NCBI GenBank assembly: GCA_051294905.1
Contig: CM119372.1
Coordinates: 992,001-1,056,000, forward strand
Direction of reading: 5' to 3'
Source of the DNA: Botryllus schlosseri
Taxonomy: Eukaryota
Length of the DNA stretch: 64,000 nucleotides
The notes under the pieces were generated by a model. That model made no database searches. It was given only the letters and a program-made list of their open reading frames with translations, and was not told the DNA's origin. This document shows positions 1 to 60,499 of the stretch, piece after piece. Each line of letters begins with the position of its first letter. The stretch's first letter is position 1. The position numbers were made by a program, and so were the translations under genes.

Positions 1-3000
1 GTAGATAGAATCGAAAAATCTAATCGAAAATATTTACGAAGTTTGGATGCGACATATTTGGTTTTTTTTTTTAAATTATTCATATCCATGATTCGAAATA
101 CTTTTGACTAACTTATGTTGTCGACATAAGATAAGCGTGAAGTGTACAAATTTCGATGTTGCGCAAATACCACAAACTTTGCTTGCTTTCAGAGCCGGCA
201 ACTAAATGCAAGACAGACTTTACGCAAAAGTTGCTATTCTGAAAATTTTGTCAAGGTAATGGTTTGAAAACTTATACTTGAGCACTACGAAATGTACAAG
301 TACTTTATCTTTACACGACGTTTTTTGTAAAATGAATACTAATTTTATTGAAAAAATAAAAAAGAGCGAAAAATTACATTTTATCCCGGAGCGCAACAAG
401 AAAAATCGTATGAATTTGTAAACTGACATAATAATAATTCTACTTGTACACTTTTTCACATTTTATAACACTTTAAGTAGTACTTAACAGTTTCAGTTAT
501 AAATAAAATACGGAATATAAACTAATCGAAAAATTCGGTAACCAATTTCGCGTAGGCTATGCATACAAATGAGGAAAGTTACATCAACGCGTGTTAACTA
601 TCGAGTTATCGAATGATTTTTTCCTTACATCAAAACAACTAGAGTGTGTAACTACATTAAAAAACGTATCTAAATGAGCTCCAGGGCATTGTGATTATGC
701 AGCATACCAAATTTCATCACACATTGCATGATGGAACAACTTTAAAACTAACGCAGTTCTATAGCAACTTTTGCCTAAATCTGTTTTCGCTAGCGTGTAC
801 ATATACATAGTCAGCTTTAATAACAGAATTATCATGCTAATATGTGACTCCTCACCCTGAAACTTGGTACGTAGTTGTAGGACACTGGCATTTTACTTAT
901 TCTAGACATGCAAAAATAAATCATGCAGGTATTAGTATTAAGCTCTACTCAGTAAACTGCGATCTGAAATAAGTCGTAGGGATGGTACCACAAAAAATAA
1001 CTATTCATCGTTTTGTATGGCCACATATTGTAGTGTTGCGACATAGAGCGGGCGCATCAGTGCAAGTTTTGAAAGCTGGAAAAGATACGCTCGTATTATT
1101 TGATTCGGATATTAATCCTGTGGAATCTCAAGTTATTCGTAGTCATTGGAAGGATAATTGCATCATAGATGTGCAGGAAAAAGAGATCTTTCGATTTGTG
1201 GGTGTCGTCAATATTCAACGAAAATCCGGCCATATAATTGTGCGCGGGTCCCATTGTTGAAATTGAATTGATCAGCGTGACGTTTTACATACTGCGCTGT
1301 ATCGAAAGCATCAATGCCAGTTGAATATCGTCGAATGACTGTCTATAATGTTAATGACATACAAGAGTCCTAGTTATCTAAGCTGTGGATTTGCATAGCT
1401 GCTTGTCGATATATATGGATACAAGAATGGAACTCGTGAAGCGACATCGAAACATCAAGCGATCTGGAGGATTTCAGCAAGTGAATCGATGCAATGACGC
1501 ACAATGATATCATTGATATATTATGCTCTTTTTCGAAATAAATGAACTCGTACACTATGCAATGCTATTTCAATCAGACTGATTAAGTATCAGCTAAAGT
1601 ATAAGACACGAAAAAAGCTCGGCACTGAATCGTTATATTATGGGAATCGATTCGACTTCTCGGAATCGTAATTAAATGAATGTATCGACAGACAACAAGT
1701 TAGTTGAAAAGTAAAACTAAGCACCAACGAATATCCGTGAAAGGGTTGTAATCTCGGTGAAATAGTGTGCGACACATTTTTCCACAAGTCGAATGCATGT
1801 CGGTTCATACTAAGACCATGTTACGGCCAAATATGTGTGTTTTTCTGTCTCCAAGTCAGCTACCCCCACATTGAATGTACAGAGTCGGTGCATGTATGAG
1901 ACTTCAGAACATTTGAAAGTTATGCAAATTCCAGGATCCTCATTTTCAAAGTAGCTTAGATCTCGAAATAAGCTCTGACTCGCTATTTTCCTCAAAGCAT
2001 GGAATTATCACGAGTATCACCTTCGATCGTTGAAGAAAAGGATGAGATTATATCCGAAGCATATTCCTTGACCAGGAATTTTATCATGTACGAACTCGAT
2101 GGCTCATGCGTTAAGGTGAATACGAAAGCAGAGAGAACCTTACGTCGAGTTGGGGATGAAATGTTCGAGCAACATCGAACTGTCCTAAACGCAGTCTCCA
2201 AACGTCTCCGCTATAGCGATGTTGAAGTCAATGAAAAATATGAAGAATATTTACCCAATGAGCGAATGTTCCTGATGATAGCTGATGAAATTTGCAAAGA
2301 TACCAAAGAAAATTGGGGTAGGATTGTCTCCCTTTTTGTGCTGGGTAGCATTCTTGCTCGCAAGAACGAGGATGAACATCATGGGGAGCATATAGAAGCT
2401 ATCATACAGACAGTCGGAAATTACATTGCTAGCAGAAGACTAAAGTAGATAGTGCGAAATGGAGGATGGGTGGGTGATTTACATGCTTTGCTTATGATTT
2501 ATAAATTATCTTTTAGCATGAGATATATATTGTATCCGCTCCCCAGAGCCCATATCATCTCTCGATGATGAAACTCAGCTTTACCTTCCAATTCGGTTCC
2601 CGATACGATAACTTTCATCCGTATGATCATTAAGGCTTCTATTTTTGTTGTAGGATGGCTTTGTAGAATTCTTTGATAATACCGCTTTCGACTACAATAA
2701 AGTTTGGCAGGGACTCGTGTTTGTCGGGATCGGACTGGCATCTATTGCAATGGCATTATCAAGATAATGGATGTTCGCGTGTTTTGTCTCATGTAATATT
2801 TTAAGAATAAAATTCTTCATCGTTTAATCGCATCCATTTTACTGTAGGACCTATACAGTTTCTTCTGAGGATACTCGAAGGATTGCCCCATATGGAAACC
2901 TTCTTTATACTTTTAATTTTTCAAATTTCTACAGCTACGTAAGGAAATTGTTAGGATTACCCAGAATACATTGCAGGTCAAATTTGATTCGATTACGAGC

Positions 3001-3650
3001 ATTATAGCGACAGAGATTTACGATAGTGTAAAATGACCTACCTTACGACATCAAATTTCGTCTTCTCTCCAAGTGGGTATATCATGTTCTATAATATTGT
3101 CCATACCGAACAAATATAAATTTGCCTGTGCTGTTGCTTTGCAAGAATACTTTGCTCACATAGTAACCAATTTCTGGTGGATCCCGAATCGATATAGACA
3201 GAAATGCGAAAAGGTACATTGACATGTCTTAACTTCTGCCATAGAAGTTGCGTTTCTGACTACTTAAAAGTTGCTAGAGCTCACGCTGTTTTATCGTCGT
3301 ATTGATGTTCGTTTTGAAAAGTAGCATGCTCAATGGTTCATGTTCACATTATTCAGTTTAATTAGGTTTTGCGCAAAGAAAAATAAAATTCACGCAAAAG
3401 TCGGTATTGCTCCGCGATGATTTTGATGTTGTTCCATACCGATGTGGGAGGTAGTACACTTAATTTCGAAAAGTACGCAGATAACTACTTCTACTAAATT
3501 CTTACACTTCTAAGCTTCTACACTGAATCTTGTGAAGTATATAGAAAAGGAAAACTAACGAATAATTCATGAAGTTCCGATAGGCTATATTTGAGGTAAT
3601 GATTCCCATGCGAATGAAAAGTAAGAGCAGAAGGTTAGTATATCAACGAA
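1..3650 (+). repeat. Left arm of a long near-perfect inverted repeat (may extend beyond the left edge of the window)
   Basis: Reverse complement of ~4843-8491. Mirrored ORF pairs have coordinate sums of 8492-8493. By eye there are about 9 substitutions and 2 homopolymer indels between the arms. Confidence 0.97.
1999..2469 (+). pseudogene. Bcl-2 family (Bcl-2/Bcl-xL/Mcl-1-like) gene with in-frame TAG at the first BH2 Trp; copy 1
   Basis: BH4-like SLTRNFIMYEL, BH3 LRRVGDEM and BH1 ENWGRIVSLFVLG, followed by LK*IVRNGGW (BH2 consensus WIxxNGGW) with TAG at 2446-2448. A GT at 2470 follows GGW, where Bcl-2 family genes typically have an intron. The downstream exon or TM anchor was not confidently located. 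Confidence 0.85.
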
Positions 3651-4549
3651 ATCATTACTTCTTGTACTTTAGTAGGACTTTACTGCTACAATGTACTTTT
3701 TTCAGTGGACCAGTGGTCTTGGTGAGTGTTGTCAGTTTCATCTCTATCCTACGAAAAGCTACTTGAGTACTTCACGGGTTCGTATCATCGCAAATAATAT
3801 ATTCTAAACATGTTTAGATAGCGAGGAGTTGTAATTATAGGTGAAAGGGACAAATTTTATCTAAAACTGAAACTGTAAAGTACCGATAAAGTAGTCTAGA
3901 GTATTTTTTATGTTTATTCAGCTCAATGAATATCTTCATTTGGCCTGCTTACTACATTTTAAAGATTTTCTACGCTAGAAAAATCGCTGTAACATGATAA
4001 GTATATTATAATTAATCTTATCAGCGCGGCACAGTACATTCGAGTAAATTCATTAAATTAGCTTATGTTTATGAAATTATTTGGTTTCCGAATTCTATCT
4101 AAAACTGAAACCGACGAGTATCGGTAAAAGCAGTCTTAAACCGTAGTCACTTATTACGTGGAGAGAGGCGATAGCGAAGTACTCGTGCATTTTGTACTAC
4201 TCAAGTATAGGTTTTATCTGCTTGCACTAAACTTAATCAAGTGATTAACTATTTACACTGCATCTAATTCTATTTCAGAGTATTCAGTTTTCAGGTAAAC
4301 TATACCTGCAATACTTACTTTTTAACTCACTTGGAAATCATCACGTCTTGTACTTTACTAGAAATTTACTGCTACTAAATGTTGGAATGTACTGTTTTCA
4401 GCGGTCTTCATGAGTGGTGCAAGTTTCATCTATATCCTACGACGCATTTTCGCGCTGCAGAATGACTTATCGCAATAAAAATAACAAAAATACTTCGAGA
4501 ATTTGCGAACTCTCACTGCGCGATATTTGAGTTTTACGATGAGTGATAA

Positions 4550-4852
4550 CTCTATCATAGATGTGAAGGGGGAAGAGATCTTTCGGTTTGTGGGTGTCGT
4601 TAATATTCAACGAAAATCCGGCTACATAATCGTGCGGGGGAGCCATTGTTGAATTTGAATTGATCAACGTAGCGCTATTCATATTGCGCTGTACCGAAAG
4701 CTTCAATGGTCCTGGTGTAGTTGTTCCTAATCCAGACATTCTGCTCGTACGGATGACAGCAAAGCGAAACCACGAAACCTCGAAACATCAATCGATCTGG
4801 AGGATTTCAAGCAGCGAATCGACGCAATGACGGGTAACGATATCGTTGATAT
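4550..4852 (+). repeat. Diverged third copy of arm segment ~1165-1520, located in the palindrome spacer
   Basis: Shared blocks include ATCATAGATGTG, GAGATCTTTCG, TTTGTGGGTGTCGT, AATATTCAACGAAAATCCGG and CGAAACATCAA..CGATCTGGAGGATTTCA. Confidence 0.85.
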
Positions 4853-7800
4853 ACTAACCTTCTGCTCTTACTTTTCATTCGCATGGGAATCATTACCTCA
4901 AATATAGCCTATCGGAACTTCATGAATTATTCGTTAGTTTTCCTTTTCTATATACTTCACAAGATTCAGTGTAGAAGCTTAGAAGTGTAAGAATTTAGTA
5001 GAAGTAGTTATCTGCGTACTTTTCGAAATTAAGTGTACTACCTCCCAAATCGGTATGGAACAACATCAAAATCATCGCGGAGCAATACCGACTTTTGCGT
5101 GAATTTTATTTTTCTTTGCGCAAAACCTAATTAAACTGAATAATGTGAACATGAACCATTGAGCATGCTACTTTTCAAAACGAACATCAATACGACGATA
5201 AAACAGCGTGAGCTCTAGCAACTTTTAAGTGGTCAGAAACGCAACTTCTATGGCAGAAGTTAAGACATGTCAATGTACCTTTTCGCATTTCTGTCTATAT
5301 CAATTCGGGATCCACCAGAAATTGGTTACTATGTGAGCAAAGTATTCTTGCAAAGCAACAGCACAGGCAAATTTATATTTGTTCGGTATGGACAATATTA
5401 TAGAACATGATATACCCACTTGGAGAGAAGACGAAATTTGATGTCGTAAGGTAGGTCATTTTACACTATCGTAAATCTCTGTCGCTATAATGCTCGTAAT
5501 CGAATCAAATTTGACCTGCAATGTATTCTGGGTAATCCTAACAATTTCCTTACGTAGCTGTAGAAATTTGAAAAATTAAAAGTATAAAGAAGGTTTCCAT
5601 ATGGGGCAATCCTTCGAGTATCCTCAGAAGAAACTGTATAGGTCCTACAGTAAAATGGATGCGATTAAACGATGAAGAATTTTATTCTTAAAATATTACA
5701 TGAGACAAAACACGCGAACATCCATTATCTTGATAATGCCATTGCAATAGATGTCAGTCCGATCCCGACAAACACGAGTCCCTGCCAAACTTTATTGTAG
5801 TCGAAAGCGGTATTATCAAAGAATTCTACAAAGCCATCCTACAACAAAAATAGAAGCCTTAATGATCATACGGATGAAAGTTATCGTATCGGGAACCGAA
5901 TTGGAAGGTAAAGCTGAGTTTCATCATCGAGAGATGATATGGGCTCTGGGGAGCGGATACAATATATATCTCATGCTAAAAGATAATTTATAAATCATAA
6001 GCAAAGCATGTAAATCACCCACCCATCCTCCATTTCGCACTATCTACTTTAGTCTTCTGCTAGCAATGTAATTTCCGACTGTCTGTATGATAGCTTCTAT
6101 ATGCTCCCCATGATGTTCATCCTCGTTCTTGCGAGCAAGAATGCTACCCAGCACAAAAAGGGAGACAATCCTACCCCAATTTTCTTTGGTATCTTTGCAA
6201 ATTTCATCAGCTATCATCAGGAACATTCGCTCATTGGGTAAATATTCTTCATATTTTTCATTGACTTCAACATCGCTATAGCGGAGACGTTTGGAGACTG
6301 CGTTTAGGACAGTTCGATGTTGCTCGAACATTTCATCCCCAACTCGACGTAAGGTTCTCTCTGCTTTCGTATTCACCTTAACGCATGAGCCATCGAGTTC
6401 GTACATGATAAAATTCCTGGTCAAGGAATATGCTTCGGATATAATCTCATCCTTTTCTTCAACGATCGAAGGTGATACTCGTGATAATTCCATGCTTTGA
6501 GGAAAATAGCGAGTCAGAGCTTATTTCGAGATCTAAGCTACTTTGAAAATGAGGATCCTAGAATTTGCATAACTTTCAAATGTTCTGAAGTCTCATACAT
6601 GCACCGACTCTGTACATTCAATGTGGGGGTAGCTGACTTGGAGACAGAAAAACACACATATTTGGCCGTAACATGGTCTTAGTATGAACCGACATGCATT
6701 CGACTTGTGGAAAAATGTGTCGCACACTATTTCACCGAGATTACAACCCTTTCACGGATATTCGTTGGTGCTTAGTTTTACTTTTCAACTAACTTGTTGT
6801 CTGTCGATACATTCATTTAATTACGATTCCGAGAAGTCGAATCGATTCCCATAATATAACGATTCAGTGCCGAGCTTTTTTCGTGTCTTATACTTTAGCT
6901 GATACTTAATCAGTCTGATTGAAATAGCATTGCATAGTGTACGAGTTCATTTATTTCGAAAAAGAGCATAATATATCAATGATATCATTGTGCGTCATTG
7001 CATCGATTCACTTGCTGAAATCCTCCAGATCGCTTGATGTTTCGATGTCGCTTCACGAGTTCCATTCTTGTATCCATATATATCGACAAGCAGCTATGCA
7101 AATCCACAGCTTAGATAACTAGGACTCTTGTATGTCATTAACATTATAGACAGTCATTCGACGATATTCAACTGGCATTGATGCTTTCGATACAGCGCAG
7201 TATGTAAAACGTCACGCTGATCAATTCAATTTCAACAATGGGACCCGCGCACAATTATATGGCCGGATTTTCGTTGAATATTGACGACTCCCACAAATCG
7301 AAAGATCTCTTTTTCCTGCACATCTATGATGCAATTATCCTTCCAATGACTACGAATAACTTGAGATTCCACAGGATTAATATCCGAATCAAATAATACG
7401 AGCGTATCTTTTCCAGCTTTCAAAACTTGCACTGATGCGCCCGCTCTATGTCGCAACACTACAATATGTGGCCATACAAAACGATGTATAGTTATTTTTT
7501 GTGGTACCATCCCTACGACTTATTTCAGATCGCAGTTTACTGAGTAGAGCTTAATACTAATACCTGCATGATTTATTTTTGCATGTCTAGAATAAGTAAA
7601 ATGCCAGTGTCCTACAACTACGTACCAAGTTTCAGGGTGAGGAGTCACATATTAGCATGATAATTCTGTTATTAAAGCTGACTATGTATATGTACACGCT
7701 AGCGAAAACAGATTTAGGCAAAAGTTGCTATAGAACTGCGTTAGTTTTAAAGTTGTTCCATCATGCAATGTGTGATGAAATTTGGTATGCTGCATAATCA

Positions 7801-8491
7801 CAATGCCCTGGAGCTCATTTAGATACGTTTTTTTAATGTAGTTACACATTCTAGTTGTTTTGATGTAAGGAAAAAATCATTCGATAACTCGATAGTTAAC
7901 ACGCGTTGATGTAACTTTCCTCATTTGTATGCATAGCCTACGCGAAATTGGTTACCGAATTTTTCGATTAGTTTATATTCCGTATTTTATTTATAACTGA
8001 AACTGTTAAGTACTACTTAAAGTGTTATAAAATGTGAAAAAGTGTACAAGTAGAATTATTATTATGTCAGTTTACAAATTCATACGATTTTTCTTGTTGC
8101 GCTCCGGGATAAAATGTAATTTTTCGCTCTTTTTTATTTTTTCAATAAAATTAGTATTCATTTTACAAAAAACGTCGTGTAAAGATAAAGTACTTGTACA
8201 TTTCGTAGTGCTCAAGTATAAGTTTTCAAACCATTACCTTGACAAAATTTTCAGAATAGCAACTTTTGCGTAAAGTCTGTCTTGCATTTAGTTGCCGGCT
8301 CTGAAAGCAAGCAAAGTTTGTGGTATTTGCGCAACATCGAAATTTGTACACTTCACGCTTATCTTATGTCGACAACATAAGTTAGTCAAAAGTATTTCGA
8401 ATCAGGGATATGAATAATTTAAAAAAAAAACCAAATATGTCGCATCCAAACTTCGTAAATATTTTCGATTAGATTTTTCGATTCTATCTAC
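4843..8491 (-). repeat. Right arm of the long inverted repeat
   Basis: Position 8491 pairs with position 1. The inner end TCGTTGATATACTAACC (from 4843) mirrors GGTTAGTATATCAACGA (ending 3649). Confidence 0.97.
6023..6493 (-). pseudogene. Bcl-2 family gene, copy 2 (identical protein, same BH2 TAG)
   Basis: Mirror copy in the right palindrome arm. The 149-aa ORF is identical to copy 1 and stops at 6046-6044. Confidence 0.85.
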
Positions 8492-32969: not shown

Positions 32970-33873
32970 TCAGGAACAACTAGAACTCGTAAACAATTGA
33001 AGAACTTTATCATCTTTCATGTCGTCTGTAACATTAACACGTTCCATCTCGGTGACGCCCCATCCAAAGATCGAAGCAAACTCTTTTAAGAAAAGAGGCA
33101 GAACATTTTCCACAGTCGCAACATCTCCAGTCTCCGCACTCAAAGAAGTTACACCTTTACCTTCGATACCACAAGGCACGATTTTAGAAAACCAGGATAG
33201 TTCCGTGTCGCAATTTAACGCAATCCCATGCGAAAACACTCTTTGTTGTGCATTAACCCCGATCGCACATACTTTTTTATCTTTGATCCAAACGCCTGTG
33301 TGCGGAGATCGGGCCGCTTTGAGGCCGTATTCATTACAAATGTTGATCGATATTTGCTCAAGTTTGCATAAATAGTCTCTCACCGATATGGGTACTTGCC
33401 TCATACTAAAAATTGGATACACGACTAGTTGTCCAGGACCATGGAACGTTATTAACCCACCTCTGTTAGTTCTGGCGAAGTCAGCACCAAGATTTTCTAG
33501 GTATCTTTGTTCCTCGGTGGTGTATTGTTTGTTTCTGTACCCAACGGTGTACACTGGCGGGTGTTGTAAGAGTAACAAAGTGGGACTGGCGGAATAGTGA
33601 TTGTCTTTGGTCCACTTTACTAAATTTTGCTGCAACCGGAGTGTCTTGGCGTACTGAACGCTGCCCAGGTAGAACGTGCGGAAAAGGACTTCCTTCATCG
33701 GACTCGTATTGCGTAAACTACAGTAAAAGTTCATGTAAATCAAGAATGCATCCGTGACATAATGAATAATATGGTTAATATAGCTCATGGGTCGCCGATA
33801 ATTTTTACATGGCTGCTTTGAAAATTAAAAAAAATCAATGATCAGTAACGTACTTGGAAAAAATTACCGTCAT
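32970..33873 (-). CDS. LIPT2: Octanoyltransferase / lipoyltransferase 2 (LipB family)
   Basis: Motifs LLLQHPPVYTVG, RGGLITFHGPGQLVVYP, KKVCAIG, HGIALN and IVPCG. The main exon is 33717-32970, after acceptor TTTTACTGTAG. A 20-nt first exon at 33873-33854 (MTVIFS, GTACGT donor, phase 2) joins in frame to give 255 aa, but this exon is less certain. Confidence 0.93.
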
Positions 33874-48286: not shown

Positions 48287-50411
48287 CAGGGCTGTGGAGT
48301 CGGTAAATTTTACCATCGACTCCGGCTCCGACTCCGACTCCACACATTTTCAATATACCGGCTCCGACTCCGACTCCGACTCCTGAGTCTTAAAACGTAC
48401 CGACTCCGACTCCGACTCCGACTCCAGAGTCTTTAAACGTACCGACTCCGACTCCCGACTCCGACTCCGACTCCAACAATATTAACAATTTACTTCGAAA
48501 ATTATATGCCACGTTGTCGGTTGAATGACTATCATAGAACCATCAAACATATGCAAACATATGATATACGGTGGCATGCTAAACTGTTTCATTGTGGAAC
48601 AGCTCGAATTATCCACTATGCAATTAACATGAAATAAAGATTTGCTAAATATCCTTCCTTTTTCAAGTTTTTGTAACATGGACTCTCTAATATCCTGAAA
48701 TGTATGAATATGAATCATTCAAATATGGCAGATATCAAATCCTGTTTAATAAAAATGTAGATAAAAATCCAAGTGTAGCTCTTGTGTATGAGTCAGAAAC
48801 TAATAAAGAGATTGAACTTACTAATTTTGTCATTACACACTATCCTGATTACAAGCACACACACTCTTACTACTAATATACATTGGTGATAAATGGAATT
48901 TAGTTAAGTAGGCCTAGTCGAAGACCATAGCCTATGTCTAGTCTACCTCTACATGTACTTAATAAAGTATTCAAGGATTGGGACTTGCAGTCTTTCTTAA
49001 TCATTTGTTTGACCCAAACAGCTAAGCTACACTACAAATATTTTTAATTTTGTCAAGTGGGAAGCATCATTTGGTCATATTTACATCATTTTAACAATTT
49101 TACAAAACCAGCCAATGCATTTGCTCTGTCACAGTATCATGGTATAATTCCAGAAATTGCATCAATGTTGACTGTATCGCGAAAACGCATATTGCGATTT
49201 TCTTCCCCTATGCAGCTGAGTTGTAATTTGCAAGTATTAATGTCTAATTTTATCTATATCAGGGGCGGGCAACTTTTTCGACCAAAGGGACACATGAGAT
49301 TTACGAACCATGGCGCGGGCAACTGGAATGTTGATAACCTTTTTTCAGTCGTCCGATAGGAGCGAACTGAATTAGGTGACATTGCAAACCAGACTTATAT
49401 TAATACGCTCTAAAATTGATAACAATATGTCATGCAACTGTGCAGTGCGCAATCAGGCCCTGGTCGCGCAAAGCGCGAAATTTTTTTGCAAGATAATGAC
49501 TGAATTATATCAATAGATATGTTGCTAACATACATTGGGGGTCGCATCTGTATACCACAGGGCTCATTTGGCAAGGACAGGATTATTCGACGCTTAGACA
49601 TAGCAAAATCGACGGTATCAGTGAACATGCCTCTATAATTTTGCGCAAATGTTTTGTGGACGATATCACTGCGAGTACACAAGCGAAGCCGCATGTTGGA
49701 CGACATTTTTTAATTAACTAACTAATTTCGAATATAGTTAGACTCAATTCTGTGAATAATATGTATTTATCATTTTCAGAAGGGGGCTCAAATACTGAAT
49801 GCAAGAATCTAGTGACAATAAATCATGCGAAGTACCGAGAAAAATTTCAAGTCAAATAAATCTGTCATGAAATATTCTACTTTATGGTGATATACGAAGA
49901 TCTGGGATAAATGTGGCTGGCCCCTGGATACGTCAATGCGTCAGAACTGTTGTTTTAGTCATCATCAAATTTCGCGGTCATGCTAATCAAATTATGGTTC
50001 GCCTTGCAATTGTACCTGATGTCATAAATAATTTCGAGAATTACCTAGCAGGCCACACCTAACCTTCTCGTGTGCCAAATTTGGCCTGCGTGCCACGGGC
50101 TGGCCGCACTTGATCTGTATGGTTATTAATAACAGTGATTGGCGGTACATAAAAATTCTATTGAAAATTCTTTGAAAGCAAATGTTTACATGATAGACAA
50201 GTTGGAGTCGGAGTCGGAGTCGAAGTAAGGGTCATTCTCACAAACTCCGACTCCGACTCCAGTCAGTATTTTCCTATCGACTCCGACTCCGACTCCGACT
50301 CCAGCAATTATAGTTTTCACGACTCCGACTCCGACTCCGACTCCATCAAGCGAAAATTACCCAGACTCCGACTCCGACTCCACCGACTCCGACTCCGACT
50401 CCACAGCCCTG
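48287..50411. mobile_element. 2.1-kb non-autonomous TIR element with (GACTCC)n arrays, inserted into the TIR of a CAGGGTTGTAAC MITE (host 48275-~50790)
   Basis: CAGGGCTGTGGAGTCGG...CCGACTCCACAGCCCTG with a perfect 8-bp TSD GTTGTAAC. Confidence 0.9.
49260..50112. mobile_element. Nested hAT-type element (third nesting level)
   Basis: CAGGGGCGGGCAAC...GCTGGCCGCACTTG flanked by ATCTATAT and ATCTGTAT. Confidence 0.7.
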
Positions 50412-50830
50412 GTTGTAACGAAGTCACAAGGTTCCGTGTCACAAGTCCATGTCATTTTTATAGTTTTGACTCGAGTCAAGTCGAGTCATCTTCGATTCAC
50501 CACCGAGTCAAATCCGAGTCCAAATCGGCGAGCAGAGGGTCGAGTCCAAGTCATACTGTTATGACTCGAGCCGAAGTCGAAGTCATTATGTTGACTGCTC
50601 AGTTAAACCCACTTTTCACAATTTTGGTTGGTGATATCGAATGGATTACTAACATACTTATTCTCATCACTTTTAACATTTAGCTTCTGGTCGCATTTCC
50701 GGGTACCAATATAGTCTACTAATAGACGAAATACCAAGAGTGTGGTAACTTTGCTATTCTTCGAAATTACTATGACGTGTCGGCCAAGCTCTGTACCTCA
50801 AGATTCCAAATGTTCAGTCCTGAGTAAATC

Positions 50831-50864
50831 CCCCGAATATTTTCGGCTGATACTCGTCAGGGGC
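50831..50864 (-). ncRNA. Minimal hammerhead motif, with a degraded plus-strand partner at 50961-50994
   Basis: Minus strand reads GCCC-CTGACGA-GTATCAGCC-GAAA-ATAT-TC-GGGG. Confidence 0.6.
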
Positions 50865-52824
50865 AATATTCAACAACCAGCAGGCCTATACAAAATTGGA
50901 AAGCACTTTATATACGCATCACCGAATATGACGTCAATTCCCTTATAGTTAGTGACGATTACCCCTGACGAGTTTCAGTCGAAGAATTCGGGGTGAATAG
51001 TCTATATTATTCAATTGTATATTGAAGGAAGAGGTTAAACCCTGTGGAACTAACTATCTCGTGATTCTGATAAATTAAGGTGTTTAGTTACCAAAAAAAA
51101 ACTCCAAACGTCACTAAAATAACCCCTTAGTTGCTCATCAGTCGTAGATTGGATTTGCGTGGGCAATATAACGCTATGCGTTTTTCGATATCACCCGTAC
51201 GTAGTCAATGCCTTATTACTAAGAGTAGCCTAATTGAAGACGAATTGTAACGGTCAAGACTGAATATTTACAGAAGACAAACGCAAGGAATACGTTTTTA
51301 GACTTTGAATAATACGCAGTAACCAATAGTCGCGTCGAAAGACTTGCTATGCTTAAAGATTGCGGCATTTTTCTATACGCATTCCTTTGAATAAATTTCG
51401 ATAGCAATCGTGTAATTACTCACACCTGGAGTCTTGAGTGCGCTGTTTAATCTTCGAGTAGATTAACGTGGTGCTACTCACTGCCTTGTATGACTAAAAT
51501 GCGAACGGTATTTTTGTTCGGTATCCATTTCGTCACCACCGTTTTTAAACGTTATTAACGTGATAAGTATCGTAACTTGTCAGCTATCAGGTTATATATA
51601 GACGATGTGTTATATTTTCAGCCGGACTTGACACTGAATAATTACGAGTTCTAAAATAAGAGTCTCCACGACACAGGAAAGAATTTTGATCATACATATC
51701 ACAGCGTACACACCTAGCTATATGATACGATGCGTATTCCTAATATTGATAGTCATATTGCTCGGCTGTAAATAGCATACAAACCAATCTACGATAACAT
51801 CGTTGATCGCGAAACATGTGCTAGTTTATCACCGCCATATATAGTTGTGTCTGCACATGACCATGTGAAACTGAGACTGTCTTATTATTTATCTTGACAC
51901 GATTTCAATGGCACTTGTAGGTAAGGGTGACTCGCTACATTGGTCATATCATTATTTAACAGGTAACCGCTTTGGTAATCGGCTGTAATTGTGTGTTTTA
52001 TAACTCAACAGTGATTAATACGCAGCACGCTTATCAACTCACAGTAAAAGTACCTCCTTCACGAATTTGTATTACGAATTACTTCGTTTTAAGATCACAT
52101 ATGTTATTCCCGTCTCTTTTTATGTGTGTCAAATTAGAATGATCTGACTATAGAGTCGGCCTGGCAATGAATTCACGCTAGTTTCGTATTAGAACGATTT
52201 GCAGTCATTATTCAAACGATTGTTATTTACCCATAGGGTATGATACCGAAAGTTACTAAGCCTCGAAACAATATCGCGACTTTGTATAAATGCCGATCCG
52301 TTTCCAGTAGATAGCACAAAACGTACTGATGGTATAGGTGCGTCCACCGCTAGTATTTAGAATCATTCTCAACCATAGATTGGGAGAAGCGTATGACATT
52401 TGAGTCGAAAGTGTAAAATAATTGAAACGTATTTTTTTATAGACACTTTTCAGTTGAGTTGAGTTTATGGTTAATAATTTTATCCTTTCAAAATCGCGTG
52501 CGATTAATGATAGGAAGGTTTCAAAACGTCTTGGTGTAGTATTTGAAATCAGACACCTACCCGGACCAAGACTATGTAAATAAGGTACGTGCACAGTGCA
52601 CACTGAATGGAAAGTAACAGAAGACACCATAGAAAGGTCAAACGATGAAAATGAGGTAGCATGTGTCGGAAAGGCAAGATCGATATATCCGATGGCCCGG
52701 TATTCTCGATTGCTGACTAGTATTTATTTGCGGAGGCATCAAATCTTTTGTACTTGAATAATCCAAGTCATTGGTTTCTAACTTTTTCAGAATATAAATA
52801 TATCACCATCAATATAGAATCGAC

Positions 52825-55800
52825 ATGTTTCAAACCGCTATGTGCAGTAGGAATGTATTTGCCGGCGTACTAATCGCACTGTCTTTGGCTGCTTTAGCAG
52901 CGAGCATGCCAACCGTGTGCAGAGAGCCTTGTCTGCGAACGCGATACGGCGACTTCGTGGAGAGATGCGAAGACATGGGATCACCGATGCAAGGTAAAAT
53001 TTACCCCTGACTGCAGATGATAGCCGAAAAGAAGATTTATTTCAGTATGAATACATTAGTCAAAGGCAGATTTGCGCTATGTTAGCTTATCTATGTGTTG
53101 TATGGGGCATGGGCTTTCCAGTCAGAGTTGGAGAGAGAACCGGAAAATATTCATCTCTTTCAAATTGGATCAGAATTAGAATTACTGAGTTGACAAAAAC
53201 TTGGAAATTGAATTCCATTTCGAATAAGAAAGAAATATCAATTCCTACCATATCACATTTCATTCTCATAACAATGGCGATGACAAATGTCTGTACACCA
53301 AACTTGGCCCGTACCCCATACTATACAGTTCACCTGTCGCATTTTCAGGAAAACAATAATTTAGAATTTATACTAAAACTAAGCCTAGAATTTTTTTCAC
53401 AAATTAGGTTAGAAGTAGACTACCGGCATTTTACTCTAATTAGCTCTAATTATCTAGCTGTCTAAGTCTGTCTGGCATTGATGATTAATTTGAACCGATT
53501 ATTATTTCAGAATACTGCGAAATTTGTAGAAATCACGGTTTCTGTCCTGAGTTACCGGCATGGGCAAGACCGGTTTTGCAAGGTGAGTGATAAGATATTA
53601 CTATGCTACGCATTCGTCTGTAGCGATAACTTCCGATTAACAGCACAATTCCAACACTGTTTGATGGGCATCGAATGAATGTCGCACCCTAAGATAAGAC
53701 TTTAATTAAGTTCCGATCAAAACTCACTCCGTATGATTGTATCCGAATAACTAGTGACGCAGATCGCACATAGTTAGCGATCATACGAATATTTCACTGG
53801 AACTCGGAAAACATGCGTTTCAATATCCGCTGAATACATGGAGTGATCCCTTTGGTAGCTTTTCCGAATAAGATTCGAAATAGGATTAGAGCTACATAGT
53901 TTTATTTCCAAATTCTAATGGCATTCGAATTACTGAATTTGCAAAATCAAATAAGAGTGCATTCTCATACGCCTGAGAATGGCAAACGTCTGTACACCAA
54001 GCTTGGTTCGTTTCGTACTATACAGCTCTCCTGTAGCATTTTCAGGAAAACCAGAAATCGGATGATCTGCGTTGCGTTATAATCAGTCTAATTAGACAAC
54101 TAGAATCATCAAGCGGTCCAAGTGTTATCCGAAAGTGAACGGCGATCACTTGGTGTGAGCCGTGTCGCGAACCGAAACTGATTGCGCACCATATCAGCTA
54201 TCGCAGCTATTCGAGCGAAAGCGAAAAAGCAAATAAAATCAGATCAGAAGCCTATATGGATTAATGGCGACTCGTTAACTACCTACGAAACTGATTTGTT
54301 GCGACATCGTCAATCATTGTAACTTATCCTTTGATATGAAGAATCGAGTAGGTATTTGGTCTGCAATCGATGAGATATGTTGTTGCTTTTGTGATCATGG
54401 TGTTTCGACTACTGTGTACAATAGGGTTGTTCAAAATTACTTTTCTCTCAGATTTGTGCGGCTATTAGCTAAAATTGTTAGGTTGGCTATAAAAAATTTG
54501 GCTCAATTCTAACTAGAAGTAAAGGTATCAAAGCTGTCAAATTTTGAATTCAATACTAAAGTCAAAAAAATTGTTAGCCTACTAACCCATGACATTGTTA
54601 TACTGGCTGCAAAAAATAAGCAAAATAGATTTGACTCGATTCCAAACAGTCGAAGTGTACTTATTCGAATTTTTCATTAATAATTCTAGGATTGCACACC
54701 GTAAATACTATTGTCTCAAATTCAAGATTTTCTACTCCAATAACTTCGCTTTTACCTGTTGGAACACCATAGGCCGGTATTCCTTTTATGATTTCCGGCA
54801 GTCGACTTATAGCACGGTCCACATACGCGGATCATATATAGCTATGAGACATAGACTATATACGTTCCAATTTCAGTCGGCTGGAACCCGTTCGTTGCCA
54901 AGACCTGCGACCATTACCCTCCCAGCGTTGTGACCGAATGCGACTCTGACTATCGTGTGGGCTCGACGTGCAATCTGCGGTGTAGCGAAGGATATTTGCC
55001 CGCGCCGGAATTGTACAGAGGATTCGGAGGAGAACACACACACGACGAACTGATGTCATTCAAAACGACTTGCAGGTAATGCTTATTTTGATTCAGTGTA
55101 CATTATGAATAGATCTTTATGCAAGCAACGTCATCTTCTATCTTACAATGTAGGTACAAGCGAAGGCTTTAAGAAATCGAATTCTATAGAATTTGTGATA
55201 CAATTGTTGATATACAACATTGGGAACATTCTATTTCCAATTCTCTACAAGTAGCTGACGAATACCCCTAACGAATTTCTGCCGAATATATTCTGGTTCG
55301 GTTCAAAATAAATATATTATTCAAAACAAATGGAAGTAAATCAGCTCCATACGTTGGTAGTTGACGCCTTACCAATTAACAAACTGATAACGATATAGCT
55401 GCATTTTCAAACACTGCAGAATTGTACAACCTACTCATCTAGTTAAGTTAACGGTCGACTAACCACTATTTTTTATGAGTAGCTCTTATTGTAGTTGAGG
55501 ATTTTGAAAAGTGAGTAATTCTTGAGAGGTGCAATGGTCAGTACCGAAGTACTTCTACTTTTCGAAGTACCTCAAGTACTTCAACTTGATTTTGTCTACT
55601 CCGGCTATTTGTTCAAGTGGTAATGATTTTAGTTTTTTCAGCAAAACTAATCTGAGACATTATGATAGGCATACTACGCTATCGAGAAGTCCGACTGGAT
55701 CGACCTACCCGTACCTAGTACCTACCTACACGCATAATAACATTTCAATAACGTTATTTTGTACAGTTATTCTCTCGATGGCTCATCCGTAGAATGGAGT

Positions 55801-58361
55801 TCGAGCAATTTCTCTTGCGTCGCAAAGCAGGACATCATGGACAAGTTCTATCCCGACACTATCCAGGTCTGTTGAACACACAGGTCTTTAACGGGGCTGG
55901 GAGTTAGACTTGAACTCTTATTATTAATTTATGCTAAAATCCCACAAGAATTCCAAAACTTTGCAAAACGGAATGACCGCGTTCTATCAAATATTTCATC
56001 GGGCATAAATTAAAAGTCTCCGATGTCACATGGTTTCTGATCGTGCAGTTCTTAAAACTCCACTTCTGCGAACACCCTCTTTAACGCGGCCTGTTTACGA
56101 GATATTCATTCGAAACAACGAACGTTCGCGAGCGGTCTTACTTGACCTCAAAAATGCTGAACAGAGATTTTTTGCTATTCATCCGAGTGCATTTACGCAT
56201 AGATATCCACTGCGTGAACTAAATACCACTGAATTTGGATAATCTGTTCCCCCCTCGGATACTCACCAACATCAAAGAAGGTTTTCAGCTGTAGCTCGTC
56301 CCTGTATGCAACACCACTCTACCAGTCTTGTGCAAAATTCAATCACGTATATTAGTGTCAATACATGAGATAAGATATCGTCTGATGTTCTACTCTCTGC
56401 TCTCAAGATACCGTTACATTATTTTTGGAATGACCTTATATTATTCATTTAATTTCTAATTTTCCACGATGCTGCGTCGTATTTTTCCTACGTTTTCTTC
56501 AATTTATTTATTCTTAGCTAATCTTTAGTTTTGGAAGTAACGACTTCTGTAATAGATGCTCGTCTTTGAAGACTCTGTTATATCGAGCCTCCCGCCCATG
56601 CCATACATTTCTATAAATCGCATTTCGGCGAATCGAATTTTTGTTATGTATGCTATTGAATAGTGTATTATTGTATATTGAAATATACCCAAATATTTTC
56701 GACTGACAGTCGTCAGGGTAATACTACAATATGAATATATTATTCAATTGTATGTTGAAGTTCTGTACTTCCAAGAAGCTCGTCAAATATACTTAATACT
56801 CATGCGTGTTACTGATTTGCATGATTGACAAATAATGATCCTCTCTCAGATGTTCGGACCGCCGCTATTGCCCCCTAGCCCATATCCAGACAGCTACGTA
56901 ATCGACCTTTTCGACGATGAGCTAACGGCTGTGAGTGAAGATGATAGCGAACAATCGGGAGATGACGTGAGTTGGAGAATGAAATTGAAATCAGCAACCG
57001 GGCATCTTTGGATAGAGTCGCGCCTTTGCTTCCGCATGTCGATACGGTTTTTGATGAATTTCGCTTCTAAGTCCACATTCATTGAAAATTATCAATTTAC
57101 CTCGAGACTTTTTGTGTGACCCTTATCAAGAGATAACGGCAGACTTGGACTAGATAATTCTAGTTGTCTAATTAGACTAAAGGGAAATACCGATGGTCTA
57201 ATACTAATCTAATTTATGAAACGTTTCCATGCTCTAATTTAATTCTAATCTAATTTCTGGTTATCCCGAAAATGTTACAGGAGAACTCTACAGTGCAAAA
57301 ACTGCGTAGCTATAATTCTAATCCTAATCCAACTTGGAAAAGTTGTTAACTATAATTCTAATTCTAGTCTAATTTGGTAAAATCTGTGTAGCTATAATTC
57401 TAATTTGATAATTTGGAACAGCTGACTTTGGTTAACGGCACAATAATCATCCTAATAATAAACATCGAAAACGCGTGACAATCACATTAAATATTGGATG
57501 GAAAGATTTGGGACATGCATCAGTATAGAATAGAATAACGAAATAATATTATTACATTATATAGCAACTCCTTCTGTTGGAATAAATCTGGATGACATAA
57601 TTTATTAATTTATTTAACTCCAATGCAGATGAATGAAATGCAGACCTGACTTTCTGAATATCACAGAGAATTCTCTCATTGCAGATGGTCCCAGACGACA
57701 GAAGGACTCTCGGACTCTTCAATTTCTGTGGCAGTGCTTGCGCCAGGGCTGGGAGAAGTTACAAATACGGCTGCTCGCAAGTGGGAGGTATGAATAACAT
57801 TAGGCTTTTTTTGTAAAGACGGCGGAAGAATAGCACATAAGAAGCTTTTTGGCCGTAGCTATAAATCGACAGTGACATTCGAAATAGGATAGACCACTGT
57901 TTCTTACCCTTACCCATTTTATCGCTGTTTATCAAGTCTACAGTTGGCACCAAATGGTTGCACGATAATTGAGCCAAATTTGAGTTAAAACCGGTCTAAA
58001 GAGGGTCTGCAAAGACATAAAGATTGAGAACCAATGCATTAGAACATGGATTTCACACAGACATTGCAAATGAGGGTGACTTCTGCTGTGTGAGTCGGCT
58101 ATAGGCTACGTGTCTTGTCGTCACGTTTAAGAACCACAGACATATAGCCGAATATCATTTACAGTCACTCATACGTTCATACGTTTATTTTGAAAGGAAT
58201 ATATACATTATACATACATGATGTGTTCTTTTGTGCGAGCCATGGCGAATTACAGTCTATTTGAAGGCTTATAAATGAACAAATTCTCGTTTTCAGCATA
58301 TTTCTGCATCGTTTGCCGAATGCGAAGACTCTGCGCGACAAGTCGCTCTTTCTTGGGTTGA
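52825..58361 (+). CDS. Secreted 274-aa precursor: signal peptide, 6-Cys module, Sushi/CCP domain, acidic spacer, RR site, cationic 6-Cys C-terminal peptide
   Basis: Exons are 52825-52993, 53511-53582, 54877-55075, 55767-55866, 56850-56966, 57685-57787 and 58297-58361, all GT-AG with consistent phases 1,1,2,0,0,1. The Sushi signature is CDHYPPSVVTECDSDYRVGSTCNLRCSEGY...TTCSYSLDGSSVEWSSSNFSC. Joins after exon 4 are inferred from splice signals and frame. Confidence 0.8.
54419..54765. mobile_element. Degraded partial copy of the CAGTAGGG fold-back MITE (intron 2 of the Sushi gene)
   Basis: TA|CAATAGGGTTGTTCAAAATTAC, plus internal CACCGTAAATACTATT and CAATAACT.CGCTT blocks. Confidence 0.6.
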
Positions 58362-60499
58362 TTTACAGCTGAGGAAGAGCCTGAGAAAGGGAACAGCCAT
58401 CGCCAGGAATAAAGATTCTGGAATTAGGTTGTTGCTTCGACTATACCCGGGCCGAAGGGCTTGGACATGCGTCACGTGACAGTGATGGACGAGCAACACA
58501 CAAGTCTCTCAGGCAAACCCGACCGACTTGGACAATTAGGCTTGTATAGAGCCAAATGCTTGCAATCTGATCTTATCTGATTTGTTAAATGTTTCTATGA
58601 TCTAAATTTAATTCTAATCTAATTCCCGGTTTTCCTACACGAGAACTGTATCGCGCAAAACGAGACATTTTAAGCTCGTTGTGCAAACATTTGCGATTCT
58701 CATGCTTACAAGAATATACTGTGATTTGAAATAAACTTGACTTGATTTTTATTGTGTTTCTTTCTAATTAGGAATTGAATTCGATTTCAAAGTTTTTGCG
58801 AATTCAATAATTCCAATCTGATTTGGAAAAGCTGAAAATTTTCTTGTTCTGGCTCTGATCTCAAATACGCAACAATTATAAAATGCGTTCACTTAGAGTC
58901 CCTATTTCATTGTTGAAACGTAATTATGGTCACTTGCAGAACGATTCCATGCAGCAGCTCACATTATTACATTCCAATATAAGATAGCCAACATATGGTC
59001 GCAATTTTTTTCTGTAGATATCTCCGTGTCGTGTCTCGGTTATGATAAAACTTTCAAACGAAACTTTTCATTTTTATCGCATTCTTGTGGCGTTTCGAGA
59101 GGATGAAATATGAATGAACCTGAAACTGAAAATGACTTCATTGTGTCGCGAAATAGCTTTGATCGGATTAGCCTTCTTTGTTTGTTTTTGAGGTATTCAT
59201 GGTGTTTGTCGACTACTATGGGCATTTACACCAGGCCGATATTCTCCATTTCTATTCCGTAACTGCCGACTTATAGCACGGCCCACTTCTAGGCTTTTCG
59301 TGAGACAATGCTTACGCGGATGAGGTGGCGAGGAGGAGCCTAGATAAACCTCCAACACTTAGGTATCGGAATTCTGAATTCGGATTAGCCTTATTCAGTC
59401 AACGACGAAATGGTAACAATGCAACAAGATATCTCTCGTGTTTGGAACTGTCAAATTCATTGTAGGTCGATGGCAAAGCCGCTTATATTGGGAAACGAAA
59501 TTCGAATTTATGAAGAATCACCAGGGAAACACTTGAAACAAAATTCTGTTGACATCGATTTGAGACTTGATTCAGGCTGATTGCAATGTGCTGATTTCAA
59601 AAATGCCATCGGTTTTCTCCTATCACGTCAAGTTTTTGCTCACGTATGCCCACTTCTGTCCTCGTTAGGGCTACTGTTTTATCGGCTTATGACTGTATTC
59701 AGGCGAACGAATCATCTTAATATTGCCAAATCTACTATTTGCGAATAAAAAGGCCCTATGATCAGTCATATAATGCAATACTATCGTGTATATATATACG
59801 CTGGTTGATGAAGTGTTCAAATGAAAAATAACAGCATGGATTTTGAGGCATCTTGGGATCGAGGAATTTCCATGCAGCCCGCGAGCGACCTGAAGTGTTG
59901 CATCCTGCCCGCGACGTCAGTTGAGTCTGACATTCCCTGCTCTACAGCATTCACCCGAAATGTGCAGGTATCCTGATTTTTGGTGCATTTTTGTTCTCTT
60001 CACGATAGGAATGCACAGCCTAACATTAAAGTAAGTTGTATCGAGGGGTCAACTGAATAATTAAGCAAGGTAAGGCACATGTATCGAATTAGGTCGATGT
60101 TTAACGGCATTTTTAGTTGCAGGGTACTCTCGTCCAATCCACTCCAAATTTATATATGAATCATAAAATGGAATATATTTGCTTTACACTTTTAATGATG
60201 CACGCGGTATAGTATGCACCAGAGTTGGATAAATTCCATTAATTCAGTTTAATTACAATTACAATTATAATTACTGTTAAACATTTAATTGATTCGGTAG
60301 AGAGGTGCTATTTGACAACCGCAGCGACGTATAGTTAGCAACAATCACAAGCTATTCATGTTTCATTCATGATTCGAAGAATACCCTTTAATCAGAAAAA
60401 ACTCGAACATTTTTGAACTATTCCCAATCATAAGTACTGAAAATACAAACACAGAGATTTTTTAAGCAACTGCTAACAACCAAAAGTTTAAGCAACTTG

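Follow-up and report, generated by a model that had tools for sequence, protein, structure and literature searches.

What does a gene encode that joins a signal peptide, a Sushi-like domain, a strongly acidic spacer and a short cationic C-terminus with six cysteines? This question is raised by positions 52825 to 58361 (plus strand) of a 64,000-nucleotide (nt) stretch of the Botryllus schlosseri genome, called the window below (assembly GCA_051294905.1, contig CM119372.1, forward-strand positions 992,001 to 1,056,000). Our tentative answer, to which we give slightly less than an even chance, is a precursor that releases a 47-residue cationic peptide, probably amidated and tied by three disulfides, carried by a pro-domain, resembling the ascidian turgencins and most likely serving host defence. 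The Arg-Arg pair (RR) before the peptide, its six cysteines and the Gly-stop at its end are all retained in a homologous protein, P0001, despite 49% overall identity.

Gene structure and transcription

The gene is real, spliced and transcribed. The seven-exon model of the preliminary description has GT-AG borders at all six introns (phases 1, 1, 2, 0, 0 and 1; lengths 509-1294 nt), and the joined exons form an 825-nt frame for 274 amino acids with a single, terminal stop. Four of 24 sequencing runs were examined. Five of the six joints (1-2, 3-4, 4-5, 5-6 and 6-7) are present at the predicted borders in contigs of runs X1 and X3, which come from one study and whose status as RNA is a guess, and joint 6-7 is additionally found in two raw RNA reads of run X8. 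Since joints 4-5, 5-6 and 6-7 are in the contigs, exons 5-7 are spliced to exon 4, a connection whose absence the preliminary description had named among the findings that would refute it. Joint 2-3 is absent among the contig matches listed, and the P0001 alignment spans it without a gap. The GC content is 0.46-0.55 in exons versus 0.33-0.38 in introns, and the ATG is preceded by an in-frame stop. The features of the gene, with the evidence for each, are as follows.

52783..52790, plus strand: pyrimidine tract followed by AG, resembling a splice acceptor and placed 34 nt ahead of the ATG, possibly the end of an intron in the 5' untranslated region (UTR) or a trans-splice acceptor (sequence)
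52825..52993, plus strand: exon 1, predicted signal peptide, with its hydrophobic core at roughly residues 11-26, and opening half of module A (Cys 32, 36, 48) (hydropathy up to 2.7, -3/-1 sites, joint 1-2 in X1 and X3)
53511..53582, plus strand: exon 2, rest of module A (Cys 59, 62, 68) and a linker (contigs; aligned with the P0001 N-terminus)
54877..55075, plus strand: exon 3, most of the Sushi-like domain, which is of the selectin type with six cysteines and has a long C2-C3 loop (Pfam E=0.011; phmmer matches including a fish E-selectin; own repeat profile)
55767..55866, plus strand: exon 4, remainder of the Sushi-like domain, with Trp157, Cys164 and a single N-glycosylation motif at 161 (joints 3-4 and 4-5; P0001 alignment)
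56850..56966, plus strand: exon 5, Pro-rich stretch and acidic spacer (joints 4-5 and 5-6)
57685..57787, plus strand: exon 6, candidate convertase site Arg-Arg, then the opening half of module B (Cys 234, 238, 249) (splicing; RR-TL kept in P0001)
58297..58361, plus strand: coding part of exon 7, with the rest of module B (Cys 257, 260, 266), the last Gly and the stop codon (joint 6-7 in X1, X3 and X8; SRSF-x-G-stop kept in P0001)
58362..58735, plus strand: probable 3' UTR, with AATAAA at 58408 and 58730 (sequence; a spliced X3 contig reaches 58515)

No upstream joint to the acceptor-like site at 52783-52790 is among the matches listed. The AATAAA at 58730 is the likelier polyadenylation signal of the two, because the spliced X3 contig extends to 58515 and because a variant at 58410 disrupts the first AATAAA in X1, X3 and X8.

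The gene looks weakly or locally expressed in two bulk RNA samples, since its exon bins have a depth of about 0-4 reads in the raw runs, of which about 6% and 13% were read. The bins with high depth are repeats in introns and flanks, not exons. Dispersed repeats, deeply covered by reads of both strands, lie at 50800-51100, 56519-56819 (in intron 4) and 58927-59528.

At least eight coding variants are listed, four of them synonymous and four residue-changing, none at a cysteine, the RR or the last Gly. Exon 3 occurs in two versions in each of runs X1 and X3 (3 and 11 differences over the 196 nt of 54875-55070); they are either divergent alleles or stem from a close paralogue at another place in the genome.

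The predicted precursor and its homologue

The N-terminus is predicted to be a signal peptide, judged by an 11-residue hydropathy of up to 2.7 (no later stretch exceeds 1.2) and by cleavage candidates under the -3/-1 rule after residues 23-27. Module A follows, with cysteine spacing 3,11,10,2,5, a net charge of -3 and no dibasic release site. Beyond the Sushi-like domain, the anatomy of the preliminary description was recovered as it stood: the spacer at 201-224 has a net charge of -11, RR occupies 225-226, and 47 residues and a terminal Gly precede the stop. Module B has the spacing 3,10,7,2,5, and the 47-residue peptide has one Lys, six Arg and no Asp or Glu, giving a charge of +7. Its isoelectric point (pI) is 9.6, 55% of its residues are hydrophobic, and its hydrophobic moment reaches 0.59; the predicted average mass of the amide with three disulfides is about 5189 Da. 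A second RR at 263-264, which the preliminary description does not mention, lies inside module B of the window protein and is absent in P0001.

Modules A and B had been described as homologous. Their spacings are as claimed, and a phase-1 intron interrupts each module two or three residues ahead of its fourth cysteine, but in a shuffle test with fixed cysteines the similarity is borderline (p=0.036 with the module B of the window, 0.38 with that of P0001), so that the homology is suggestive only.

P0001 was among the 17 proteins returned at E<=0.001 by a full HMMER search with exon 3. It is a protein of 220 amino acids from a single Logan contig, and aligns to positions 58-274 of the window protein with 49% identity over 222 aligned residues. 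It has neither a signal peptide nor the opening half of module A, probably because it is truncated. In P0001 the six Sushi cysteines are all present, the spacer is again acidic (net -7), and RR-TL, SRSF-x-G-stop and the cysteine spacing of module B are unchanged; the loss of RR and terminal Gly in orthologs, which would have spoken against the preliminary description, is thus not seen in this one homologue. The only dibasic site common to the two proteins stands exactly at the border of spacer and module B. Identity is 42/74 in the Sushi part, 13/33 and 8/18 in the spacer regions (39-44%), 26/48 in module B and 6/8 in the amide tail. In the leftover half of module A (P0001 residues 4-18) the spacing is 6,2,3, nearer to the turgencin ending (7-8,2,3) than the 10,2,5 of the window.

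The other 16 HMMER matches cover short Sushi-like or repetitive stretches only, and the best named among them is an E-selectin of Salmo trutta. Word-index searches among longer proteins gave no match for exon 3 (10 candidates) or exon 1 (2008 candidates), and P0001 found only itself among 20 candidates; both are weak evidence. A metagenome scan with P0001 matched none of 155 candidate stretches. The sole match of the exon 3 scan (L001, one of 161 stretches) was rejected as a chance match, being a bacterial-type locus of 62% GC.

The Sushi domain of the preliminary description appears likely but partial when judged by sequence. Its framework residues are kept in both the window protein and P0001 (Cys 91, 102, 112, 116, 146 and 164, the C-x-x-G-Y motif, and Trp157 before the last Cys), but the Pfam score is below cut-off: exon 3 alone matches Sushi (PF00084) with E=0.011 and 16.6 bits, under the 20.7 gathering cut-off, and a Pfam scan of the whole P0001 does not match Sushi. 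With an own profile of 44 selectin-type repeats, covering residues 100-122 only and built from matches of the same exon 3, the window protein reaches 21.1 bits and P0001 19.5, whereas the best of 500 shuffles reaches 9.3.

As the preliminary description had expected, the precursor matches no described family in Pfam, the PDB, the ESM Atlas or the literature. BRICHOS was not matched in Pfam by P0001 or any of the seven exon pieces. A PDB sequence search with P0001 gave three chance matches (E 0.8-1.1) and none with a module B profile, and the Atlas has no usable match for exon 6 or P0001 residues 168-220. Literature searches, with most subscription journals and supplements outside their scope, gave no account of the architecture and no Sushi-type pro-domain carrying a defence peptide; the available parts of PMC10608444, PMC12212465 and PMC13542503 contain no such protein. 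Among the papers listed, one on a snail venom transcriptome mentions a sushi domain, and a search by motif led only to unrelated subjects.

Structure prediction adds little. The whole-protein model has a predicted local distance difference test score (pLDDT) of 37.7 and is unusable. The AlphaFold model of the P0001 module B peptide is a helix-loop-helix of low confidence (pLDDT 55), which has no Foldseek match at E<=0.001; its best VIA Z score, 4.0, is to unrelated helical bundles and is uninformative. A complex prediction of the Sushi-plus-spacer part with module B scored 0.01, which is no evidence either way.

Possible roles of the protein

By established precursor chemistry, the protein would enter the secretory pathway, where a convertase of the PC1/3 or PC2 type may cut after the conserved RR; the site is not a furin consensus, because it is dibasic without a P4 Arg. 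PAM would then use the terminal Gly to amidate the peptide. The acidic spacer (net -11) may, by analogy, neutralise the peptide (+7) during storage, and module A with the Sushi part may be a folded pro-domain or a co-released recognition piece, comparable to BRICHOS in the antimicrobial peptide (AMP) precursors of polychaetes. The released peptide may fold as a disulfide-tied helical hairpin like that of the turgencins. A defence role is preferred because the layout of an anionic spacer followed by a cationic peptide repeats that of the BRICHOS AMP precursors (PMC6265681), and because the peptide resembles the amidated six-cysteine turgencins of ascidians (PMC7024374).

The preliminary description had proposed an amidated cationic defence peptide. 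Its anatomy stands, with the splicing in place and RR and Gly kept in P0001, but the strong charge does not carry over: the P0001 peptide has a charge of +4, versus +7 in the window. Several further observations weigh against a defence role or the precursor as drawn. The P0001 peptide helices are less amphipathic than those of the window, and the peptide is as well conserved as the Sushi domain, with a tail that is better conserved still. A conserved peptide and amide tail are seen more often in receptor ligands than in AMPs, which tend to change fast, and the conservation, together with the drift in charge, is as compatible with a target-specific ligand as with a peptide that acts on membranes. 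The low depth of the exons in bulk RNA is unlike that of an abundant haemocyte effector. To these are added the sub-threshold Pfam score of exon 3, the lack of a paralogue inside the 64-kb window (tblastn), and the small number of homologues known, P0001 being the only one.

The same processing may instead yield a signalling ligand (a neuropeptide, a hormone or a cytokine-like peptide), with the Sushi part as its carrier or presenter. This is a possibility of real weight, though well short of even, and it is kept at that level because of the +4 charge and lower amphipathicity in P0001, the well-kept tail and the low bulk expression. The amide tail and the aromatic motifs persist while the charge drifts, and a dibasic site with Gly is equally a neuroendocrine signature. 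Sushi-type folds bind peptide or cytokine ligands in the ectodomains of class B G protein-coupled receptors and in IL-15 receptor alpha. A ligand fits less well with the window peptide, which is +7 without an acidic residue, or with the AMP pattern of a cationic peptide immediately preceded by a long anionic stretch, here the spacer; nor is any Pfam hormone family matched by P0001 or the exons, where exon 1 has only Eclosion at E=0.089, under the cut-off. It is rather unlikely that the protein remains uncut, or is cut only incidentally, and functions intact as a secreted protein of three modules for recognition or adhesion, for instance in complement-type recognition, allorecognition or gamete interactions. 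The Sushi-like domain would suit such a role, as would the at least two sequence versions of exons 3, 4 and 6 in the contigs, some with amino-acid changes; module A, with its net charge of -3 and without a dibasic release site, implies that at least one cysteine module stays attached. However, RR-TL and Gly-stop are kept in P0001 though the neighbouring spacer is only 39-44% identical, and the sole shared dibasic site is exactly at the module B border. Least probable by far, and close to negligible, is that the cysteine modules are metal-binding or redox helical hairpins like those of vanabins, with the acidic tract as an accessory. Ascidian VanabinX does combine a Cys-rich core with a long acidic domain (PMC9486056), and the low-confidence model of the P0001 peptide is helical, but vanabins have 16-18 cysteines in one core, in contrast to 6 + 6 parted by a Sushi domain here, and no vanabin was matched in the Pfam or PDB sequence searches.

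An extension of the precursor reading is that the Sushi-like domain is a built-in partner, which after cleavage holds, shields or presents the amidated helical peptide; such a self-chaperoned class of precursor seems improbable, a shade more so than the uncut protein. Cathelin and BRICHOS are both known as folded pro-domains of precursors with a defence peptide at the C-terminus. If true, a self-chaperoned precursor would be a third type of defence pro-domain beside these two, or a hormone shipped with its own receptor-like carrier, and would place this class in the sister group of vertebrates; on this improbable reading, the gene might also be the first for a turgencin-type fold. The gene further offers a possible way into the genetics of turgencin-like cysteine peptides in ascidians. 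If the peptide is a ligand instead, it would be a new amidated signalling peptide in an invertebrate chordate. In any case, the gene supplies a candidate peptide that can be synthesised and whose mass is predicted, and P0001 provides another natural version to compare it with.

Neighbouring sequence and known systems

The window contains a large inverted duplication, with arms at 58-3658 and 4834-8435 (3000 nt at 100% and 607 nt at 99% identity), which is either very recent or an assembly artefact. An open reading frame (ORF) of the Bcl-2 family is present in both arms, at 1972-2445 on the plus strand and 6047-6520 on the minus strand (Pfam E=3.5e-15). An uninterrupted lipoyl/octanoyl-transferase (LipB-like) ORF lies at 32973-33824 on the minus strand (Pfam LplA-B_cat E=3.8e-48); none of its three start variants is in the protein collection searched. 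A short-unit repeat at 50165-50680 would encode Asp-Ser and Thr-Pro runs in two frames.

Turgencins A and B, from the ascidian Synoicum turgens, are peptides of 35-36 residues with a C-terminal amide, cysteine spacings of 3,4,8,2,3 (A) and 3,4,7,2,3 (B), and the motifs CXMAC and KKXGG; disulfides C1-C6, C2-C5 and C3-C4 tie a helix-loop-helix (PMC7024374). The available parts of that paper give no turgencin precursor or gene with which the pro-region might be compared. The window peptide shares their six non-adjacent cysteines, C-x3-C opening, C-x2-C and cationic character, and its amide is predicted; the low-confidence model of the P0001 peptide (pLDDT 55) has a similar helix-loop-helix outline. 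Three of the five spacings (3, 7 and 2) equal those of turgencin B by eye, with no statistical test, and an Ala before C2 and a Gly four residues after C3 are, also by eye, common to the window, P0001 and turgencin B. The pI of the P0001 peptide, 8.9, falls between those of turgencin B (8.33) and turgencin A (9.24) (PMC7024374). Unlike turgencins, the window and P0001 peptides have 47-48 residues, spacings of 10 (C2-C3) and 5 (C5-C6) versus 4 and 3, and C-x-x-A-C without Met, and they have no Lys-Lys-x-Gly-Gly. The preliminary description, which saw a shared C-x3-C...C-x2-C outline with different loop lengths, was accurate here; membership of the turgencin family is ruled out by the length, two spacings and both motifs.

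The BRICHOS AMP precursors of polychaetes (nicomicin, arenicin, alvinellacin and capitellacin; PMC6265681) share with this protein a signal peptide (here predicted by hydropathy), a folded domain within an anionic pro-region, a dibasic site and a cationic C-terminal peptide, at 239 versus 274 amino acids. They differ in that a Sushi-like domain and an extra six-Cys module stand here in the pro-region, and in that the peptide has six cysteines and an amide signal. A BRICHOS precursor is ruled out, since neither the exon pieces nor P0001 match BRICHOS.

Botryllin is a precursor of 158 amino acids with a 37-residue, styelin-like helical peptide of charge about +11 (PMC9966394). Like botryllin and the styelins, which are ascidian pre-propeptides, the window protein would release a cationic peptide, but the precursor and the peptide are both different, so identity with botryllin is rejected; a Sushi domain is not described for botryllin in the available part of that paper. 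Identity with the St-CRPs, which have a CC-C-C-CC pattern (PMC13208793), is likewise rejected.

The Sushi-like domain resembles the six-cysteine Sushi/CCP repeats of selectins in its C-x3-C-x2-GY core, its six cysteines, the Trp that precedes the last of them and the phase 1 exon start. Unlike in selectins, it is present as a single copy, has a C2-C3 loop of 29 residues, has no lectin, EGF or transmembrane part beside it, and is fused to a peptide precursor. A pro-domain followed by a peptide is a kind of precursor already known; the Sushi pro-domain is apparently undescribed and the cysteine framework new, both in the two sequences at hand.

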